45,377 nt of DNA, taken from the sequence record MT446391.1. One strand, written 5' to 3'. This DNA comes from Escherichia virus TH13. The position numbers were made by a program, and so were the translations under genes. The number at the start of each line of letters is the position of its first letter. The first letter of the stretch is position 1. The notes beneath the pieces were generated by a model, which saw only the letters and a program-made list of their open reading frames with translations, had not been told where the DNA came from and ran no database searches. Below are positions 23,860-33,327 of this stretch, in pieces.

Positions 23860-23865
23860 GGAGAA

Positions 23866-23886
23866 GGGGCCATACGGCCCCTTTTT
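23866..23886. terminator. bidirectional terminator between late and early arms
   Basis: ggggcc-atac-ggcccc hairpin followed by T5; convergent genes on both sides. Confidence 0.65.
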
Positions 23887-24994: not shown

Positions 24995-25016
24995 GGGAGG
25001 CAGTATTGCCTCCCGA
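24995..25016 (-). other. conserved 5-prime stem-loop element copy A
   Basis: gggaggca-atac-tgcctccc perfect hairpin flanked by conserved aaccacatc, about 20 nt upstream of a start codon; near-identical copy at 25322..25343. Confidence 0.5.
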
Positions 25017-25028
25017 TGTGGTTGTGTG

Positions 25029-25298
25029 TTATTTCTTGGCCCACTCCAGAGTTTTACACTCGTAGTCTTCTTCGGCCTGGCTGAGCACACACGTCATCAT
25101 GTGCTCCGCATTGTCAAATCCGCTGGATTTAGCGTATTTATCTGCTCCTCCAACCTCTGCAATCTCGGCGTTTAGCGCCTCTACAGAATGCAGTTCGATA
25201 TTATTAAGATAAGGGCTTGAAACGCCTTCTTTGTCTTCAATCATTGACCAGAATGCGTTGATTTTGTTGTCCAGGTCCGCACTAATGAATTGTTTCAT
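25029..25298 (-). CDS. hypothetical protein
   Basis: 89 aa from ATG (MKQFISADLD...) with RBS aaggtg; track ORF 25029..25376 extends upstream through the hairpin. Confidence 0.5.
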   Translation of the reverse strand: MKQFISADLDNKINAFWSMIEDKEGVSSPYLNNIELHSVEALNAEIAEVGGADKYAKSSGFDNAEHMMTCVLSQAEEDYECKTLEWAKK

Positions 25299-25321
25299 AA
25301 TATTCACCTTTTTGTTGCGGG

Positions 25322-25343
25322 AGGCGGTATTGCCTCCCGATGT
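25322..25343 (-). other. conserved 5-prime stem-loop element copy B
   Basis: cgggaggc-aatacc-gcctcccg hairpin; same flanks as copy A. Confidence 0.5.
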
Positions 25344-25363
25344 GGTTAATATAGTTGGTTGCA

Positions 25364-25834
25364 TTATTGGTTGCAAGTGAATTTTGCAAGATTCACAGAA
25401 TAAATATGCGGGACCAGTTCTTCACACGCCCGTTTGATGGCGGCGATGTTCTTCGCGCAGTCGTCAATGATGACCAGTTCGTTAACTTCTGCATAGCACA
25501 CCAGGCCAAATACGGAACGGGCCTTGTACTCTGGCGGCGGCGTGTCATCAAGCATATGGCGTAAGAACAGACGACCTTTCGGGAATCTATCCAATTGCTC
25601 TTTCGTTGACTCCCAGCAATCTGACTGGCGGTTTGACAGGTACGCAATGTCGAAGCCCTGTTTAGCGTACATGCGCAATAACGGCAGCATGTCATAATTA
25701 ATGTCTTCGCGGACGTGGGCCTTATGCCACTTCGCCCAAAACGTTGATTTAGTCTTGATCCCCGGAACTAGGTCGTCGCGCACACTGCTTGACCCGTTGA
25801 TAACGCCATCTAAATCGCAAATCAGTAGTTTCAT
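25364..25834 (-). CDS. HAD-superfamily hydrolase (putative nucleotidase/phosphatase)
   Basis: 156 aa; N-terminal MKLLICDLDGVI matches HAD motif I (DxDG[TV]). Confidence 0.6.
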   Translation of the reverse strand: MKLLICDLDGVINGSSSVRDDLVPGIKTKSTFWAKWHKAHVREDINYDMLPLLRMYAKQGFDIAYLSNRQSDCWESTKEQLDRFPKGRLFLRHMLDDTPPPEYKARSVFGLVCYAEVNELVIIDDCAKNIAAIKRACEELVPHIYSVNLAKFTCNQ

Positions 25835-26052
25835 TTTAATTCCGCCATTAAATTTTCACGTACAATACGGGCCGAGAATGCGTCGCACACAAGATGGCAA
25901 CGCGCCGTCATGACAAGCCAGCCAGTTAGGTCAAGGCCCAGCAATTGATGAGGTTGGCTTGCGCGCCTTACTTTATTTCCAGGGAAAACCTGGTAGCGTT
26001 TAATTATTTCATCCACGACGCGAGGACTTCGGTCGACGACTAAGATATTCAT
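25831..26052 (-). CDS. small hypothetical protein
   Basis: 73 aa track ORF; start uncertain because it overlaps the 3-prime end of the methyltransferase gene. Confidence 0.3.
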   Translation of the reverse strand: MNILVVDRSPRVVDEIIKRYQVFPGNKVRRASQPHQLLGLDLTGWLVMTARCHLVCDAFSARIVRENLMAELK

Positions 26053-26518
26053 TTAATTCACCTTCGCTCATTATTTCGATTTGTGCGCTGCCGTTTGGCG
26101 GCACTTCTTCAAAGATTATCAATTGCTGGCACTTGTTGTTACTCGGCCCGACTTCGCCGGTGACGGCGTGTATAAATCTAATCCGCCAGTCCAGAAGAAT
26201 TATCAGGTTTGCAGTCTTCCTGGCCAGCTTCGCCCACTTCGTCGACGTGTCCTGATTCAGTAGCATGACCGTCCGGCGTCCGTGCGCTGCGCACTCTACC
26301 CACGGCAGCGGATCGGAATACGGCGGATTGCACCACTTCCACCCTTTCAACTCGGACCAGTCCACATCAAGCGCACTGTGTTCCGCCGTGAAGTAACGCG
26401 GTAGCAGATGATTGGCGTCGCTTGCCGCCATATCGTAACGGAATCGGTATTTCCGACGAAGCGGTTTAAATAAAGCTGGCGGCGTGCGCCAGCTATCTTT
26501 TTGCTCATTCTCCGTCAT
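26009..26518 (-). CDS. DNA N6-adenine methyltransferase (phage Dam-like)
   Basis: 169 aa; W-x-TP...F near N-terminus and catalytic NPPYS motif (WKWCNPPYSD). Confidence 0.8.
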   Translation of the reverse strand: MTENEQKDSWRTPPALFKPLRRKYRFRYDMAASDANHLLPRYFTAEHSALDVDWSELKGWKWCNPPYSDPLPWVECAAHGRRTVMLLNQDTSTKWAKLARKTANLIILLDWRIRFIHAVTGEVGPSNNKCQQLIIFEEVPPNGSAQIEIMSEGELNEYLSRRPKSSRRG

Positions 26519-26963
26519 AGTCGGGATCTATCGCATACAGGGCGGTTTTCTTGCCACTGGATAGCACGCGTTGGACTCGGGATAGCTCCGCCCTACTGAG
26601 CGGTCGGCTATCGGAATAGTAGCTGCCGTTTGCACGCCACGCTATACGCACCAGTCCTTTCCGCGGGATCGAAGACTGGCTGCCCTTCGGACGGACGTAC
26701 TCCTCGGCCAGTTTGCAATGCTCGCGCAGACCTTCGGCAGTGATGCGGTTTAGCGCGACGGTGGTTGTGTACCCGGTGCGCTGCATAATACCCATCAACT
26801 CATACAGCAGTTCGAAGCGCTCCTCTAACTCCTTGCGCATCTTTTCCTCGCCTTCATAGCTCGCCAGGTAGGTATCCGCGAGCGCGTTCGCCCGTTCGAC
26901 CTGTTCGCGGGCTTCGAGGCATTGCGCGGCCCAGTAATTTTTCTCTTCTTGTAAAATTTTCAT
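26505..26963 (-). CDS. hypothetical protein
   Basis: 152 aa; RBS ggagacaacacg; no recognisable motif. Confidence 0.5.
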   Translation of the reverse strand: MKILQEEKNYWAAQCLEAREQVERANALADTYLASYEGEEKMRKELEERFELLYELMGIMQRTGYTTTVALNRITAEGLREHCKLAEEYVRPKGSQSSIPRKGLVRIAWRANGSYYSDSRPLSRAELSRVQRVLSSGKKTALYAIDPDYDGE

Positions 26964-26982
26964 CGTGTTGTCTCCAGGTATT

Positions 26983-27007
26983 AAAAAAGGCGTCCAAACC
27001 GGACACC
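26983..27007 (-). terminator. hairpin plus U-tract (terminator or 5-prime leader structure)
   Basis: minus-strand RNA ggugucc-gguuu-ggacgcc followed by U6; lies just downstream of a promoter-like paired motif, so it may instead be an attenuator. Confidence 0.4.
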
Positions 27008-27017
27008 CTTAAGATAA

Positions 27018-27044
27018 TGCAACCAATATGATTATGCAACCAAT
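27018..27044 (-). promoter_or_regulatory. paired ATGCAACCAAT motifs / candidate promoter (TTGCAT-N17-TATCTT on minus strand)
   Basis: two copies of atgcaaccaat 17 bp apart in the intergenic gap between 27045..27368 and 26505..26963. Confidence 0.4.
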
Positions 27045-27368
27045 TTACGCATAAAAGTTCGGGTCGCGTGCGACGTCTACCAGGTAAAGGTTGCTTATGC
27101 GGTTGCCGTAGTGCCCTGGAGTGCGCTGGCGGCACACAACGGCGAAGCCTGGAGGGATTGTATTGCCCGTCTCAATAATCCACGCCACGCGTGCGCCAGA
27201 CAGCGTCTTTCCGTTGCATTCGATACGTGTTCCACCATCGGCAGTATTGATGTTGCCAATCTTGCAGCCGGTGGACTTCAGACGGATGACTCCGGTTTTG
27301 CTGTCGTAGGTGAATAGCTGGTTAGTCATTGCGACTGAAAAATCGATGGTTTCGTATGTAGCGTTCAT
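27045..27368 (-). CDS. hypothetical protein (degenerate HNH-like?)
   Basis: 107 aa; ARVAWIIETGNTIPPGFAVVCRQ...NRISNLYLV loosely resembles the HNH_3-type core but catalytic His/Asn not clearly conserved. Confidence 0.4.
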   Translation of the reverse strand: MNATYETIDFSVAMTNQLFTYDSKTGVIRLKSTGCKIGNINTADGGTRIECNGKTLSGARVAWIIETGNTIPPGFAVVCRQRTPGHYGNRISNLYLVDVARDPNFYA

Positions 27369-28075
27369 TTTAAATTTTCCTCGTTAACCGCTATCGCGAA
27401 GCCGCGCGGAGTGAGTGAGCGGATTAATTTTGTACGAGCGGATTTACCACCGAGGCGACTATACTGTTTCGAGTACCCTTTTTCAACGAAAACAGGTTTC
27501 TTCTCTGGCATACGGAAGCCGTTGCCGGTCCATAAGCAAGTCAGCTTCGGATATGAATCGCGGGCGTTGATGTATTCCGGGAAGAGCGGGTGTACGTCAT
27601 CCTCCGGCAGATACCCCCCATACTCCCACGGGTCGAACGAGTGATCCGGCTTGCGCCACTGGGTGGAAAGCACACTGCGCGGATTCTCAATCATATATGG
27701 CACTTCGAAGAAGTCACCCAGGTAAGCGGCGATCTTCGCGGTGCGCACCGCCTTAAGCTGAAAGGCGGGGTCTTTTGCACGTTTGCGCGGGAAAGCTGGC
27801 GCGCCGCTCACTGCCAGATCCGTACACGGAGGGAACGCATAGATTATATCCGGCGTACCGAAATCGCCATTCATCGCGCGGTCCACAAAGTCCATATCGA
27901 TAAACTCATTGCGATATCGGATTCCACGACCATAAATCCGGTAGTCAAGGTATGATCCGTGATCGGCTTCGGAGTAGTTGAAGCAATAACACTTATGCCC
28001 CATCTCGGCAGCACGCTCAATCATCAAGCCGCTGCCGTCAAACAATGACCAGATTGTCATTTTCGCAATAGTCAT
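27365..28075 (-). CDS. DNA (cytosine-5)-methyltransferase-like protein, unusually short
   Basis: 236 aa; motif I-like SLFDGSG, motif IV-like FPPCTDLAVSG (Pro-Cys dipeptide), motif VI-like MIENP; no room for a typical target-recognition domain or motifs IX/X. Confidence 0.5.
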   Translation of the reverse strand: MTIAKMTIWSLFDGSGLMIERAAEMGHKCYCFNYSEADHGSYLDYRIYGRGIRYRNEFIDMDFVDRAMNGDFGTPDIIYAFPPCTDLAVSGAPAFPRKRAKDPAFQLKAVRTAKIAAYLGDFFEVPYMIENPRSVLSTQWRKPDHSFDPWEYGGYLPEDDVHPLFPEYINARDSYPKLTCLWTGNGFRMPEKKPVFVEKGYSKQYSRLGGKSARTKLIRSLTPRGFAIAVNEENLK

Positions 28076-29496
28076 TTGCGCGCCTTCTTAGCTTTCATGT
28101 ATTCCATCAAGTCGTCCTGAATGTCTCGCTTACTGTCGCGACGCTCGGCGACCAATTCGTCCAGTGTCCCGCGAGCCTGGATAATGTAGACGAATACTGG
28201 TCGAGGGTGTCCGGCTTGCATCTGGCGAACCGGCCCGATACGTTCAACGATCTGCGAAAAGTGTTCAAAGTTCCAGGTGTCTGAGAAGATTGCCAGGTGA
28301 TGACCGCCGTCCTGCAAGTTAAGGCCGTGACCAGCCGATGCCGGGTGTGCGAACATGATGGGGATCTCGCCTCTGTTCCACGCTTCCATATCCTTATTGC
28401 CTTGCTTACCCTTACCCAGCGCTACGCCGTGCGGAAATTTCTTCTTAAGACGTGCCAGGTCATGCTTATACTGATACGCAACGAGCAACGGCGCGCCGTT
28501 CAACTCCTCCACGATACTTTCCAGCGCGTCCAGTTTAGCGTCGTGAATTTTCACCCATTCATCGGTGCGCTCGCCGTCTTCGTCGACCTTATATACGGCC
28601 CCGGAAGCAAGCTGAAGGCACTTAATGGTCTTCGACGCGGCGTTTGCGGCCTCCACAGTTCCGCTTTCCAGTTCGGCAAATAGCTCACTTTCAAACTGGT
28701 CGTAAATCTTGCGGGCTTTCTTCGGCAGGTCCACGACAACCGGCGTATAGATTGGCTTGTCGCACCCGAAGTATTCAGCCGCGTCAACGGTTAGTGATAC
28801 GTCAGACAGGCGTTGTTGTATTTCTTTCTCGGAGTTCTTTAGCGGGGCGTGCTGCATAGTGAAGCTGCCAGGCTTAACCGGCTTGCTAATGAACCAGCGA
28901 TCGGTAAATGCCTTATAGCTACTGCCGAGGCGTTCGCCACCGTCGACAAACCACGTCTGACCCCACAGGTCTTTCAGTCCGTTTGGAGCGGGCGTGCCGG
29001 TCAGGTTAATCCAGCGCTTGACGTGCTTATGTGCGATCGCCGCCAGGGCGCGGGCGCGCTTACTGCCCTGCTTGCTGCGGTAGCCTTTCAGCTTAGTGGA
29101 TTCATCGGCAACAACGACCGTAAAGGGCCACGCATCGCCGTAATAGTCAACCAACCACTCAACCACATCATAGTTAACACAAACCACGTTAGCGTCGCTC
29201 TCAAGCGCTGCAATACGGTCCTTCTCAGGTCCAGTGCCGTCTACGACCAGCAGGGATGAGAATCGCCATTTCTCCTGCTCCGGTGGCCAGGTGCCGGACG
29301 CAACGCGCAGCGGGGCCAGCACCAGTACGCGGTCCTCATGATGGGACAGGACGCCAGTCTGGAACATTTTATTCAGCGCCCACATTGTCGCGCCGGTTTT
29401 ACCGGATCCCATTGTCGCCCATATATTACATCGCTTATGCTTGAGGATGAACGCGGTTATCAACTTCTGATATTCGCGGCGTCGGAATCTTGCCAT
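28072..29496 (-). CDS. SNF2/DEAD-like superfamily 2 helicase
   Basis: Walker A MGSGKTGAT, motif II-like VVADESTK, C-terminal helicase domain; start placed at internal ATG (MARFRRREYQ) to avoid an 86-nt overlap; track ORF extends to 29586. Confidence 0.75.
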   Translation of the reverse strand: MARFRRREYQKLITAFILKHKRCNIWATMGSGKTGATMWALNKMFQTGVLSHHEDRVLVLAPLRVASGTWPPEQEKWRFSSLLVVDGTGPEKDRIAALESDANVVCVNYDVVEWLVDYYGDAWPFTVVVADESTKLKGYRSKQGSKRARALAAIAHKHVKRWINLTGTPAPNGLKDLWGQTWFVDGGERLGSSYKAFTDRWFISKPVKPGSFTMQHAPLKNSEKEIQQRLSDVSLTVDAAEYFGCDKPIYTPVVVDLPKKARKIYDQFESELFAELESGTVEAANAASKTIKCLQLASGAVYKVDEDGERTDEWVKIHDAKLDALESIVEELNGAPLLVAYQYKHDLARLKKKFPHGVALGKGKQGNKDMEAWNRGEIPIMFAHPASAGHGLNLQDGGHHLAIFSDTWNFEHFSQIVERIGPVRQMQAGHPRPVFVYIIQARGTLDELVAERRDSKRDIQDDLMEYMKAKKARK

Positions 29497-29500
29497 GTCT

Positions 29501-29725
29501 TTATTCCGCCTTTTTCCAGACTTCTGTCTCACTGTTCCAGTTCCTTTTTGTGGCGTCGTAGTTGGTGGCGTGTCCGATGTGGACACCGGTAGCCCGGAAG
29601 CTCTTAAATTTTTGCCAGCACACCGTCAACGGCAGCGGGTAATTCATGCCTGCGATAAACCACACGCGATCGCCCGGTTTACATTCGCCCAGCTTGGTGA
29701 GTCGGTAATGTTCTTTCATCGTCAT
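29501..29725 (-). CDS. small hypothetical protein
   Basis: 74 aa; stop immediately precedes the helicase start. Confidence 0.45.
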   Translation of the reverse strand: MTMKEHYRLTKLGECKPGDRVWFIAGMNYPLPLTVCWQKFKSFRATGVHIGHATNYDATKRNWNSETEVWKKAE

Positions 29726-29763
29726 GTCTCTCTAAAAATGGCGGGACAAGCCCGCCGTATTGA

Positions 29764-29937
29764 TTATTCTTGTTCTGCGCGATAGCGGCGCTGCCGTTCG
29801 CGCTCTTTCTTATTGCGGCACGACTTGCACTCGGCCCGATGCCCGTCCGGGCTGCGCGCAGTCTTACCGGTGTATTTGTGGAACTGGGACAGCGGCTTGA
29901 TGCAGCCGCAATTACTGCAACGTTTTTCTTCAATCAT
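29764..29937 (-). CDS. zinc-ribbon protein (CxxC...CxxC)
   Basis: 57 aa from ATG (MIEEKRCSNCGC...ECKSCRNKK) with RBS gagga; track ORF start at 30009 lies inside the duplicated segment. Confidence 0.5.
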   Translation of the reverse strand: MIEEKRCSNCGCIKPLSQFHKYTGKTARSPDGHRAECKSCRNKKERERQRRYRAEQE

Positions 29938-29968
29938 TTCTAAAATCCTCGATAGTGCTAACCGGCAC

Positions 29969-29997
29969 ACTATACCGCTACGCGACCAATTCAGCAA
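29969..29997 (-). promoter_or_regulatory. sigma70-like promoter (TTGCTG-N17-TATAGT) at left edge of tandem duplication; second copy at about 30556..30584
   Basis: -35 overlaps an AGCAACCAAT motif; -10 TATAGT; coordinates approximate. Confidence 0.4.
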
Positions 29998-30256
29998 CCA
30001 ATAAATCACAGTCGGCTATGTTGTCGATAACGCGAACGTCCGCACCGCGGCGGGCCATTCGTTCATGTTCACGTACCTGGTGCGGCTTCGGTTTCCCACC
30101 TGGGCGCTTCACTTCGACGAACACTATTTTGCCGTTGATGATAATAATCAGGTCGGGCGCACCTGCGCGCCCCTCCCATGCCAGTTTTCGGCAGAATCCC
30201 CCAACGGCTTTAACCAGCTTCATCAGGTGACTTTGTATCTTGCCTTCTGGTGTCAT
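29978..30256 (-). CDS. VRR-NUC domain nuclease, copy 1
   Basis: 92 aa; ...FVEVKRPGGKPKPHQ... with conserved D/E-x-K catalytic core typical of VRR-NUC. Confidence 0.8.
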   Translation of the reverse strand: MTPEGKIQSHLMKLVKAVGGFCRKLAWEGRAGAPDLIIIINGKIVFVEVKRPGGKPKPHQVREHERMARRGADVRVIDNIADCDLLVAELVA

Positions 30257-30444
30257 TTGGTCTGCAACTCCACGTTACGCAGACGAAGGTCTACCGGTAT
30301 ATCCGACCGGCCGGTTAGTGCCAGCGCCAGGTTTTCAGGCGTGACGAGTGCCGTAATGGTCTTGCCACGTTCCAGTCTAATGACGATTCGAATCTCGTCA
30401 TTGTCCGTCGCGCCAGCGCGCATAATGCTCATTTCTGCTTTCAT
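30253..30444 (-). CDS. small hypothetical protein, copy 1
   Basis: 63 aa from ATG (MKAEMSIMRAG...) with RBS caggaag; ATGA overlap with VRR-NUC. Confidence 0.45.
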   Translation of the reverse strand: MKAEMSIMRAGATDNDEIRIVIRLERGKTITALVTPENLALALTGRSDIPVDLRLRNVELQTK

Positions 30445-30564
30445 AATCTTACTTCCTGTACCTGTACATAATGTCGCCTTCGGCGGCAAGTGGGAAGCCT
30501 TTCGCCCAAATAGGCAGGTCGCACATCTAAAATCCTCGATAGTGCTAACCGGCACACTATACCG

Positions 30565-30843
30565 CTACGCGACCAATTCAGCAACCAATAAATCACAGTC
30601 GGCTATGTTGTCGATAACGCGAACGTCCGCACCGCGGCGGGCCATTCGTTCATGTTCACGTACCTGGTGCGGCTTCGGTTTCCCACCTGGGCGCTTCACT
30701 TCGACGAACACTATTTTGCCGTTGATGATAATAATCAGGTCGGGCGCACCTGCGCGCCCCTCCCATGCCAGTTTTCGGCAGAATCCCCCAACGGCTTTAA
30801 CCAGCTTCATCAGGTGACTTTGTATCTTGCCTTCTGGTGTCAT
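30565..30843 (-). CDS. VRR-NUC domain nuclease, copy 2
   Basis: identical 92-aa translation to copy 1. Confidence 0.8.
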   Translation of the reverse strand: MTPEGKIQSHLMKLVKAVGGFCRKLAWEGRAGAPDLIIIINGKIVFVEVKRPGGKPKPHQVREHERMARRGADVRVIDNIADCDLLVAELVA

Positions 30844-31031
30844 TTGGTCTGCAACTCCACGTTACGCAGACGAAGGTCTACCGGTATATCCGACCGGCCG
30901 GTTAGTGCCAGCGCCAGGTTTTCAGGCGTGACGAGTGCCGTAATGGTCTTGCCACGTTCCAGTCTAATGACGATTCGAATCTCGTCATTGTCCGTCGCGC
31001 CAGCGCGCATAATGCTCATTTCTGCTTTCAT
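30840..31031 (-). CDS. small hypothetical protein, copy 2
   Basis: identical 63-aa translation; begins 5 nt after DNA polymerase stop. Confidence 0.45.
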   Translation of the reverse strand: MKAEMSIMRAGATDNDEIRIVIRLERGKTITALVTPENLALALTGRSDIPVDLRLRNVELQTK

Positions 31032-31035
31032 AATC

Positions 31036-33327
31036 TTACTTCCTGTACCTGTACATAATGTCGCCTTCGGCGGCAAGTGGGAAGCCTTTCGCCCAAATAG
31101 GCAGGTCGCACATCAGCGCGCAAAGCTCCTCGGTCGTGTAGTCGTCGGTGTCCGGCACTTCTGTGATCAATTCGTCGTGTACTGACAGGACGATTTCATA
31201 TCCGGCAGCTTCAACGCCTGGCATGGACCATGCGAGAATATCGCGGCACAACGCCTGTACGATGTTCTCCGTCAGTTTGCCGCCGTAGGTGTACTGGAAG
31301 CCCCACTGGCGCGTAGTCTGATTCTCGCCCTGGTATTTGATGCGGGTGCTGGTGCGCTTCTTGCCGGTGTCTTCGTCAATCTCGGTCGTGACCGACAGCG
31401 CGATGCCTGGGTAGCTCATGATGCGCCCGGACGGCAACTCAATTTTCAACCACCACCCAGCGGCGTTCGGGTCGTCGCGCTCCTCGTCGAAGGTTGGGTC
31501 GTGCTTCGCCTTCGTGCGCACAATCTTAAGCGCTTTCCTACCGTCCGGGCGAACGTTCGCGCCGGCCCAGTATGCTTTGCCAGGATTGCGGATCGCACAT
31601 AACACCGCGTCCTCAAGCTCGGCCCAAAAGGCTACCGTCTTCGGGTGAGCCTCGCGCCACATACGTTTGATTGCGTCACAAGTCAGCCATACGTTTTTCG
31701 GCAGTATGTATGTTGGGCGCTCGTCCTTCTTACCGGGCTTCGGCGGGCGCTTCGCTTCGTTAATGCGGGCGTACTCATAACCACGTTTCGCCGCGGCCCA
31801 AATGTGATCCGGGAACGTGCCTTTCATCACGTCCGCCATAGTGTAAAGGTCGAGGCCCAGGTTTTTAGCGAACTGCAAGAACGCCGCGACGCCGCCACCA
31901 TAGCCCAGTCCCAATTCACACGCCTTACCGATCTGGCGCAAGTCTTTGCGGTTGGCTTTGATGTAATCCGGGTCAAGGCCGAACATCTTACCGGCAGTCT
32001 CGCAATAGATATCGCGACCGGCCTTAAACACCATTAGCGCGGTTTTCTCGCCCGCGATCCAGGCAAGGCCACGCCCTTCCACGTTGGAGTAGTCCGCGAC
32101 GACAAACTTCTTGCCCTTCGCCGGAATGATGCACCCACGAACGGTCGAGGCGGTCAGCTTAGATATGTCATACGCCCAGTGCGCGGTCCCGCGTAACAGG
32201 GAGTTGATGCCGTTGGTGAGCATGTGCGACCGCACCCAAAACGAGACGTCGCTCTCGCCTTCGCGGCGCTTAATCTTCCCTTCGTGGTCGTCGCTATACT
32301 CGCCGCGTGCCAGGTTTTGCGGCTGGAAGCCTTTACCTGCCCAGCGCAGCGTGCGCTTTGCACCACCATACTGAAGACACCCACGGCGGCGACCATCTGC
32401 GGATAAGCCATTAACGAGCGGATTGTACTTAGTCGAGGCCGTTGATGACGCGCCGAGGCGCATTTCGATAAGCGCTTTGCCTTCGTCGGGGAAGTCCGTG
32501 TCTTCAAGCAGGTCGTTAAGTGTGGATTTCTGCGCGTTGTGGATTGTGAACGCCGGGGCGATATCACGCAGGATTGGCAGGAAGTCATTGCCTGTCAGTT
32601 TACCACCAAATCGCTCCCAGGCTTCCTCCTTCAATTCTTCCTTATGCGCCTGCACCGCTTTGATCGCGGCGTTCGCCAGGTCAACGTCCACATAGAATCC
32701 GCGGTCGTTGATCAACTGGTCAATAAGCAGTATCTCGTCTTCCTTCGGAGTATTACCCCAGTCCGGTATGCGCCAGTAGACCTCACGCATCGCGATAATA
32801 TCCAGCGCGGCATATCGCAGAAATTTGGCCCATTCTTCAGGGTGAGTCTCGCGCGTGTAGCGGCGTATTTTGTAGGTCTTAGGGGTAGGCTTACAGAATC
32901 GTTTGATCAGCGCCTTGCCTGCCTTATCCTTCGCGTGCTCTGCGTCAACGCCCAGCACCTGACACTGCATATCGAGGCTACCCGGCAGCGCGTGCCGAAA
33001 GGCCATAATCATGGTATCTTCGATCTGGCACACTGGCAGGTCAATGCCCCACTTCTCGCGAATGACCAGGCGGTCAAACAGGAGGCCGTTAGCCATCACG
33101 ATTTTTGCTTTCTTGCGGCATACCTGGCGGAGCGCCTTGCGCAGTTCACGCGGCATTGTTGGGGATTCAGTGGCATCCCATGTCTGCACGCGGCCCTCGT
33201 CGATGGCGTATGTGCAAATCATAATCTCGGTGGTTGGGTGCTCTGCGTAGGCGTACGCCCCTACTTTCTTCAGGTCAACCCCGCTGAATGTCTCGGTGTC
33301 GAGAAACAGGCGTTCGAAGTCTTTCAT
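31036..33327 (-). CDS. DNA polymerase, family A (Pol I-like) with N-terminal 3-prime-5-prime exonuclease-like region
   Basis: 763 aa; LSVHDELITEV (motif C-like HDE), ELGLGYGGG motif B-like region; last 26 codons are duplicated in the tandem repeat. Confidence 0.85.
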   Translation of the reverse strand: MKDFERLFLDTETFSGVDLKKVGAYAYAEHPTTEIMICTYAIDEGRVQTWDATESPTMPRELRKALRQVCRKKAKIVMANGLLFDRLVIREKWGIDLPVCQIEDTMIMAFRHALPGSLDMQCQVLGVDAEHAKDKAGKALIKRFCKPTPKTYKIRRYTRETHPEEWAKFLRYAALDIIAMREVYWRIPDWGNTPKEDEILLIDQLINDRGFYVDVDLANAAIKAVQAHKEELKEEAWERFGGKLTGNDFLPILRDIAPAFTIHNAQKSTLNDLLEDTDFPDEGKALIEMRLGASSTASTKYNPLVNGLSADGRRRGCLQYGGAKRTLRWAGKGFQPQNLARGEYSDDHEGKIKRREGESDVSFWVRSHMLTNGINSLLRGTAHWAYDISKLTASTVRGCIIPAKGKKFVVADYSNVEGRGLAWIAGEKTALMVFKAGRDIYCETAGKMFGLDPDYIKANRKDLRQIGKACELGLGYGGGVAAFLQFAKNLGLDLYTMADVMKGTFPDHIWAAAKRGYEYARINEAKRPPKPGKKDERPTYILPKNVWLTCDAIKRMWREAHPKTVAFWAELEDAVLCAIRNPGKAYWAGANVRPDGRKALKIVRTKAKHDPTFDEERDDPNAAGWWLKIELPSGRIMSYPGIALSVTTEIDEDTGKKRTSTRIKYQGENQTTRQWGFQYTYGGKLTENIVQALCRDILAWSMPGVEAAGYEIVLSVHDELITEVPDTDDYTTEELCALMCDLPIWAKGFPLAAEGDIMYRYRK

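Follow-up and report, generated by a model that had tools for sequence, protein, structure and literature searches.

A compact Dcm-like gene of Escherichia virus TH13 and its predicted DNA cytosine-5 methyltransferase product

Described relatives of the gene

The closest characterised counterpart of the gene considered here comes from a study of retron Ec86, available as a preprint (10.1101/2023.08.16.553469) and since published (Wang et al., Cell Rep 2024;43:114857). Escape mutants of K42, a KarlJaspers-like phage, were seen there to disrupt a 711-bp dcm gene that is encoded by 34 of the 35 Ec86-sensitive phages and that, with the retron present, is toxic when expressed by itself (10.1101/2023.08.16.553469). 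Expression of K42 Dcm by itself also raised the level of 5-methylcytosine (5mC) on Ec86 msDNA, as determined by LC-MS, with no such rise for a C82A/E128A/K175A/K176A mutant; the experiments were made in MG1655, where 5mC on the msDNA is low without the phage enzyme (10.1101/2023.08.16.553469). Replacement of the CCTGG of the msDNA stem by AATGG, ACTGG or CATGG led to the loss of Ec86 defence against K42, and it is from these stem mutations, rather than from mapping, that CCWGG has been proposed as the target of the enzyme (10.1101/2023.08.16.553469). Genes of this type are plentiful; the BASEL paper describes the Drexlerviridae as encoding C5-cytosine methyltransferases in abundance, and the GenBank record of KarlJaspers itself (Bas06) labels bas06_0055 as a ‘Dcm-like C5 cytosine methyltransferase’.

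Canonical type II C5 methyltransferases (M.HhaI, M.HaeIII and E. coli Dcm; Pfam PF00145) are larger proteins of 320–470 amino acids, with a target-recognition domain (TRD) usually of 80–150 residues. The catalytic domains of DNMT3A and DNMT3B, the eukaryotic de novo C5 methyltransferases, comprise ~280 amino acids, retain the canonical motifs VIII–X, form dimers or tetramers with DNMT3L (in part as given by the titles of PDB entries) and have a short recognition site, CpG. M.AquI is a two-subunit enzyme, in which a second subunit bearing motifs IX and X is required. CmoX (PDB: 8yf3), a phage homologue of the C5 methyltransferases with a chain of 333 residues, produces 5-carboxymethylcytosine from carboxy-SAM (Cx-SAM) and is defined by an SPPC motif together with Arg350, which takes the place of Asn304 in M.HhaI; the engineered N374K variant of M.MpeI likewise uses Cx-SAM, a cofactor that E. 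coli CmoA can supply, and CmoX itself mostly occurs in linkage with CmoA and a ligase (PMC12783734).

The window analysed here, a 45,377-nucleotide stretch of Escherichia virus TH13 (MT446391.1), carries on its minus strand (27365..28075) an intact open reading frame (ORF) with an ATG start, encoding a Dcm-like protein of 236 amino acids. Bas06_0055 is of the same length, falls into the same PHROG family and shares 54% identity with the ORF product over 234 residues. It also contains Cys82, Glu128 and the Lys175/Lys176 pair; of the four positions mutated in K42 Dcm, C82, E128 and K175 correspond to C84, E130 and K177 of the ORF, all three conserved, and K176 to Leu178, at a site where close relatives differ from one another. 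Each reads as a stand-alone phage gene, but the two differ in setting, that of K42 and Bas06 lying in Drexlerviridae and the ORF in a Dhillonvirus with another gene neighbourhood. With homology over its full length, and a size within the ~225–250 amino acids of the compact phage Dcm-like enzymes, the ORF product is in our view best explained as a stand-alone, AdoMet-dependent DNA cytosine-5 methyltransferase of that family (PHROG 757); a reading to which we assign a probability of roughly 0.8. Our survey of the literature turned up no experimental work on the protein, nor on any copy from a Dhillonvirus, and it is by analogy with K42 Dcm that we would expect the 236-residue protein to be active.

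The gene, its neighbours and its family

The methyltransferase gene sits within a block of replication genes (helicase, Dam, polymerase), in which it and the neighbours described here are all encoded on the minus strand and have overlapping or near-abutting ends. Directly upstream is a gene for a SNF2-type DNA helicase (28072..29586, minus strand; PF00176, E = 1.9e-10; PHROG 62, E = 6.4e-157), whose stop codon overlaps the methyltransferase start in the sequence ATGA. Directly downstream, and with its own start overlapped by the methyltransferase stop, is an HNH-like ORF of 107 amino acids (27045..27368, minus strand; PHROG 99, E = 3e-16; Pfam HNH_3, E = 0.082), beyond which lie an ORF of 152 amino acids (26505..26963, minus strand) and the gene for a Dam-type N6-adenine methyltransferase of 169 amino acids with an NPPY motif (26009..26518, minus strand; PF05869, E = 4.2e-36; scoring 88.3 bits against TIGR01712, under the cut-off of 97). 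After the Dam-type gene come a minus-strand ORF of 73 amino acids and the gene for a HAD-family phosphatase, resembling polynucleotide kinase-phosphatase (25364..25834, minus strand; PHROG 415, E = 1.2e-30; weak Pfam HAD matches). At the end of the block we find a strong, bidirectional terminator-like hairpin (~23861..23886), and with its genes co-oriented and closed off in this way, the block plausibly forms one transcription unit. An earlier, sequence-only reading of this DNA had placed the methyltransferase in the same operon as a Dam-like methyltransferase, a HAD hydrolase and an HNH-like ORF; these co-oriented neighbours are present just as described.

That reading had also raised the possibility that so short a protein needs a partner for target recognition. 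It would then be one half of a split enzyme, in the manner of M.AquI, or else a second phage protein would provide it with target recognition or motif X, with the HNH-like ORF as a candidate. Such an arrangement would be in keeping with the very short TRD and unrecognisable motif X of the protein (see below), with the translational coupling of the HNH-like ORF to the methyltransferase ORF, and with the M.AquI-type split enzymes, which likewise contain a short polypeptide bearing the N-terminal catalytic motifs. The flanking genes, however, are unrelated across Dhillonvirus, Warwickvirus, Hanrivervirus, a Klebsiella siphovirus and Phapecoctavirus; in these five phage lineages no neighbouring gene is conserved beside the methyltransferase, the HNH-like ORF included, and a Dam gene is found beside it only in Dhillonvirus. 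In addition, plasmid-expressed K42 Dcm is active alone, in contrast to M.AquI, and the structural model of the ORF product is a complete and confident single domain (pTM 0.89). Gene context and the stand-alone activity of the homologue together led us to reject a partner subunit, and we regard a split enzyme as very improbable.

The ORF is instead a real gene of a large and previously described family of compact phage cytosine-5 methyltransferases. Positions 25000–30000 of the window are 100% identical to the unannotated record of Escherichia virus TH11 (MT446389.1) and show 90–96% identity to many Dhillonvirus phages. Among annotated relatives, McMelon has the same gene order, with a 711-bp ‘DNA methyltransferase’ gene at the same place, and phage Pubbukkers encodes a protein that is 100% identical to the ORF product and labelled ‘putative C-5 cytosine-specific DNA methylase’. 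A sensitive homology search, one of the checks suggested by the sequence-only reading, matched residues 2–234 to PHROG 757 (‘DNA methyltransferase’) with E = 5.5e-84. With tblastn we located homologues in 1511 phage records, at a coverage of at least 80% in 1419 cases, from phages that infect, among others, Escherichia, Klebsiella, Salmonella, Shigella, Campylobacter, Vibrio and Arthrobacter; in a large protein collection they amount to 2880 clusters at 90% identity, and an exhaustive profile search returned 1879 clusters at 50% identity, with E ≤ 1e-10 for 811. With the family already annotated, and one homologue experimentally characterised, the gene is a routine member.

The median length of proteins in the PHROG 757 family is 234 amino acids; the ORF, at 236, matches this norm and is therefore no truncation. 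On the same grounds we rejected its interpretation as a truncated gene or pseudogene. The protein had previously been described as ‘unusually short’, a description that is accurate relative to canonical C5 methyltransferases but does not apply within its own family.

At the level of sequence, the 236-residue protein has no Pfam match even at E ≤ 10, itself failing the gathering score of PF00145, and no NCBIfam match. Neither the protein nor family profiles built from 26 and 128 sequences gave anything significant against the sequences of the PDB; M.HaeIII appeared in these searches with E = 0.43–0.68, over motifs I–IV only. Amongst its close relatives 17 of 26 do have some match to PF00145, and of the ten that we scanned individually, four (P0023, P0026, P0055 and P0016) pass its 22-bit cut-off, in matches that extend only over profile positions 4–94 of 324, i.e. 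motifs I–IV. Comparisons of profiles with the canonical enzymes are likewise of little statistical significance, and the assignment to the superfamily therefore rests on the fold and on these relatives.

Fold, catalytic motifs and a reduced recognition region

Structure prediction, also suggested at the outset as a check, produced the fold of class I SAM methyltransferases, and specifically that of the cytosine-5 enzymes. The AlphaFold2 model, generated with a 26-sequence alignment, is a confident single domain (pLDDT 90, pTM 0.89) that displays the alternating strand-helix pattern of class I methyltransferases and has the topology of a C5 methyltransferase. When the model is compared to the PDB with Foldseek, the first 43 matches are all to the methyltransferase domains of DNMT3A, DNMT3B or DNMT3C (E ~3e-7), with Dnmt2 scoring well under both these and the bacterial DNA methyltransferases; amongst predicted viral structures, the model comes closest to other phage ‘DNA-cytosine methylases’ of ~225 amino acids (TM up to 0.87). 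The overall shape of the model is closest to the small-TRD catalytic domain of DNMT3, although the ORF shares just 12–16% sequence identity with those of DNMT3A and DNMT3B.

The motif I-, IV- and VI-like strings that had first drawn attention to the ORF (27365..28075, minus strand) can all be read in the translation, with codons checked; the conservation figures given below refer to 128 diverse family members. Motif I, S10-L-F-D-G-S-G16 (28028..28048, minus strand), would form the AdoMet-binding loop that follows β1 (residues 7–11 in the model). It aligns with LFSGAGG of M.HaeIII and LFAGLGG of M.HhaI, and presents the FxGxG pattern as F12-D-G14-S-G16, with G14 being less conserved in distant members of the family. 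Motif IV, F81-P-P-C84-T-D-L-A-V-S-G91 (27803..27835, minus strand), aligns with GFPCQAFSISG of M.HhaI, pairing P83-C84 with P80-C81 of that enzyme; Cys84, the predicted catalytic nucleophile (codon 27824..27826), is kept in 96% of family members and G91 in 99%. Motif VI, I129-E130-N131-P132 (27680..27691, minus strand), is located on strand β5 and is likewise conserved (E130 in 99%, N131 in 94% and P132 in 98%), pairing with ENV of M.HhaI in a low-confidence hhalign alignment. In hhalign, comparison of family profiles with M.HhaI, by itself or within a 39-sequence M.HhaI-like alignment, yielded low probabilities (the homologues are all >70% identical, making for a shallow template), and we have used these runs solely to check how motifs I, IV and VI line up. 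Across the family, the best-conserved residues are C84, G91, K98, E130, N131, P132, R141, P149, D173, Y175, K177, W182, P190, R219, P223 and G225.

Several of these residues fall within a family-specific insertion of ~30 residues (148–178; 27542..27634, minus strand), apparent from conservation and from DSSP analysis of the model, which positions it between β6 (residues 145–147) and β7 (residues 179–184). Here P149 is conserved in 99%, D173 in 93%, Y175 in 98% and K177 in 95% of members, and we regard the insertion as a candidate for the part of the protein that reads DNA. The arginines of the motif VIII consensus, QxRxR, are absent from the sequence before β7, which reads R172-D-S-Y-P-K177-L; Lys177 stands at their place and may be their functional equivalent. 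Beyond β7, only ~34 residues (185–218) lead to the next recognisable string; there is no sizeable TRD, in agreement with the earlier judgement that the protein is too short for a normal one.

That string, R219-S-L-T-P-R-G-F-A-I228 (27392..27421, minus strand), opens the C-terminal helix and resembles, by eye, the RxLTPRExA of motif IX. R219 is kept in 121/128 family members, T222 in 105/128, P223 in 117/128 and G225 in 120/128, and the protein ends eight residues further on, after a conserved A233-N234. Segment-wise hhalign comparisons of the C-terminus and of the middle region paired neither motif IX nor motif X; judged by its sequence, R219-S-L-T-P-R-G-F-A probably represents motif IX. The GN(S/A)V of motif X is absent from the ORF, with K211, R219 and N234 as candidate equivalents. 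Motifs IX and X had both been thought missing; this appears correct for motif X, which has no clear counterpart, but probably not for motif IX.

The condition of motif X is also relevant to the proposal that the enzyme transfers a carboxymethyl group, taken from host-made carboxy-SAM, to give 5-carboxymethylcytosine as CmoX does, either instead of or besides a methyl group; a reading in which a basic residue would occupy the place of the motif X Asn. The conserved basic residues K211 and R219, close to a C-terminus that lacks GN(S/A)V, would suit this proposal. The LC-MS data, however, showed 5mC after expression of K42 Dcm, and the protein departs from CmoX in several ways: its motif IV reads FPPC and not the SPPC that helps to define that group, its chain is ~100 residues shorter, and the annotation of the near-identical and syntenic McMelon genome includes neither CmoA nor a ligase gene of the amide or AMP-forming type. 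Carboxymethyl transfer is, on this evidence, a most improbable activity for the protein.

In comparison to the canonical type II enzymes, then, the ORF product is 90–240 residues shorter, has Lys for the motif VIII arginines, gains the 30-residue β6–β7 insertion, and has both its TRD cut to ~34 residues and its GN(S/A)V removed. The term ‘minimal methyltransferase’, offered initially as one of several options, describes it well; a class I cytosine-5 fold with motifs I, IV and VI, and a very reduced target-recognition region. To our knowledge, the family is among the smallest of the cytosine-5 DNA methyltransferases; we found neither a solved structure nor a directly mapped recognition site for any of its members.

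Proposed chemistry, target site and cost to the phage

By likeness to other C5 methyltransferases, we would expect the chemistry to be that common to them all. The target cytosine would be flipped out of the helix and attacked at C6 by Cys84 of motif IV, with Glu130 of motif VI expected to protonate N3; Lys177, just before β7, would replace the motif VIII arginines at O2, and AdoMet, held by motifs I–III, would donate the methyl group. The DNA methylated is most likely that of the replicating phage, a modification that would serve to blunt restriction. Such methylation has a known cost, as on the msDNA of retron Ec86 (Eco1) it sets off abortive infection. The idea that the protein acts on a different substrate altogether finds no support in the K42 homologue, which raises 5mC in DNA by LC-MS.

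As to the site, we put CCWGG, the specificity proposed for that homologue, at about even odds. There are 159 CCWGG sites in the 45,377-nt window (observed/expected 0.98) and 168 GATC sites (observed/expected 0.80), and some 6-bp palindromes are near absent: GGTACC occurs 0 times against 6 expected, CAGCTG once against 13 and AAGCTT once against 14. These counts are compatible with both CCWGG and GATC being protected by the pair of methyltransferases in the block, but as evidence they are weak. A search of the literature for any methylome, or any recognition site established by direct mapping, from Dhillonvirus or Drexlerviridae phages returned only the retron Ec86 work.

It is possible, though we think it doubtful, that the protein is a C5 DNA methyltransferase of another specificity and not a CCWGG mimic; one that reads 2–4 bp, or that prefers hairpin or single-stranded DNA. 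Its closest folds are the DNMT3 domains with their small TRDs, there are parallels for a short site in both DNMT3 (CpG) and CmoX (GC), and the ORF itself has just the ~34 residues between β7 and the motif IX-like string. The family is found, too, in phages of hosts without a Dcm tradition (Campylobacter, Vibrio and Arthrobacter). MG1655, furthermore, is dcm+, and 5mC on msDNA was low in this strain until the phage enzyme was expressed, so that the phage enzyme is perhaps not a plain copy of host Dcm; it may differ from it in site, in substrate form or merely in dose. Set against these points, each of the three changes to the CCTGG of the msDNA stem abolished Ec86 defence against K42, and CCWGG goes unavoided in the window where several other short palindromes are avoided. 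The high conservation of the DNA-proximal insertion throughout the family also argues for one shared specificity, whatever its nature.

A bolder view, and one that we consider unlikely, is that this minimised family has arrived at a new way of reading DNA, dispensing with a TRD in favour of the β6–β7 insertion and perhaps of DNMT3-like dimerisation, to give a specificity or substrate preference unlike that of host Dcm; a shorter site or hairpin DNA would be examples. If true, such a difference would explain why Ec86 is triggered by the phage enzyme and not by host Dcm. Dual use of carboxy-SAM by the family would be a smaller possibility again.

Returning to our preferred reading, of a stand-alone Dcm-like methyltransferase, an enzyme of this family would be an asset to the phage in countering restriction but is also a liability, since it triggers retron Ec86 (Eco1). 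The structure of a family member with DNA, or a methylome, would indicate the least amount of protein needed for sequence-specific C5 methylation, and so minimal a form of C5 methylation could serve as the basis for compact epigenome-editing tools.

Close relatives of the ORF include broken alleles, in the form of a 56-bp deletion in Bas84 and of the truncated clusters P0004, P0009 and P0015, from which it follows that the methyltransferase gene is dispensable; the balance of asset and liability may explain their existence. The same broken copies could be taken to mean that the protein is a catalytically dead, decaying relic, or that it has turned to RNA in the manner of Dnmt2, both of which we hold to be highly improbable. 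The structural matches to Dnmt2 rank well under those to DNMT3 and the bacterial DNA methyltransferases, the K42 homologue acts on DNA, and in Escherichia virus TH13 the ORF is intact, with all of the family-conserved catalytic residues in place.

5′ end and architecture of the methyltransferase

Starting at the 5′ end of the compact Dcm-like cytosine-5 methyltransferase gene, we see a 15-nt extension in TH11, the phage of the window (ATGACTATTGCGAAA ahead of ATGACAATC; 28058..28075), such that the encoded protein is 236 aa in length as against 231 aa in most close relatives. The Shine-Dalgarno-like context AAGAAGG found upstream goes with the first ATG.

Some members of the family are parts of larger fusion proteins (homologue clusters P0242, P0262 and P0269; BFVD models A0A6J5SE15 and A0A6J5NPY6), either carrying N-terminal extensions of ~170–200 aa or occurring as domains inside proteins of 1100–1400 aa, one of which is labelled ‘helicase-like’. 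Within the insertion between strands β6 and β7, the conserved segment EYGGYLPEDDVHP (27596..27634; residues 148–160) bears a weak local likeness, not significant by hhalign (E=0.09), to amino acids 261–277 of M.HhaI (KTGGYLVNGKTRKLHPR), a stretch formed from the end of the M.HhaI target-recognition domain and the start of motif IX.

Broken and truncated alleles

In phage JohannBuxtorf_Bas84 (PQ850611.1, 3547..4186), the orthologous gene is split into two open reading frames by a 56-bp deletion that falls directly after motif IV. Truncated alleles of 148–195 aa, at 83–98% identity, make up a further three clusters (P0004, P0009 and P0015, the last with 24 member sequences). Taken together, the broken copy and the truncated clusters suggest that the gene has been lost recurrently; the pressure behind this is possibly retron Ec86/Eco1 or methylation-dependent restriction.

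Site avoidance and comparison with host Dcm

Across the whole window several 6-bp palindromes are strongly avoided, with observed against expected counts of 0 and 6.0 for GGTACC, 1 and 13.3 for CAGCTG, 1 and 13.7 for AAGCTT, 1 and 7.4 for CCCGGG, and 10 and 41 for YGGCCR; the same is true of CTAG (18 and 54). GATC is avoided just mildly (168 sites, ratio 0.80), and CCWGG not at all (159 sites, ratio 0.98), over the same 45,377 nt.

MG1655 is a dcm+ strain. The retron Ec86 experiments were performed in this background, where msDNA was poorly methylated before expression of the phage enzyme, a homologue from K42/KarlJaspers (10.1101/2023.08.16.553469); the phage enzyme may thus depart from host Dcm in the site it recognises, in the form of its substrate or in its dose, its CCWGG specificity being putative.

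Neighbouring genes and a tandem duplication

The small Dam-like methyltransferase (26009..26518, minus strand; 169 aa, NPPY motif) gives a clear match to Pfam PF05869, and scores 88.3 bits against NCBIfam TIGR01712, under the 97-bit cut-off. Adjacent to it, a 152-aa open reading frame (26505..26963, minus strand) matches PHROG 10530, ‘DNA ligase’ (E=8.8e-90), as which its relatives’ copies are also annotated; this label looks unreliable, since the protein is far below ligase length and finds no support in Pfam or NCBIfam.

Further along, 29939..31114 holds an exact tandem duplication with a period of 587 bp (589 bases identical at offset 587), which doubles the VRR-NUC endonuclease gene (identical 92-aa frames, 29978..30256 and 30565..30843) and takes in part of the adjoining open reading frame. 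The segment is single-copy in the public TH11 record (MT446389.1) and seven other listed Dhillonvirus genomes, in each of which the 1801-base query covers ~1214 bases; the duplication is a true variant or else an artefact of the assembly.
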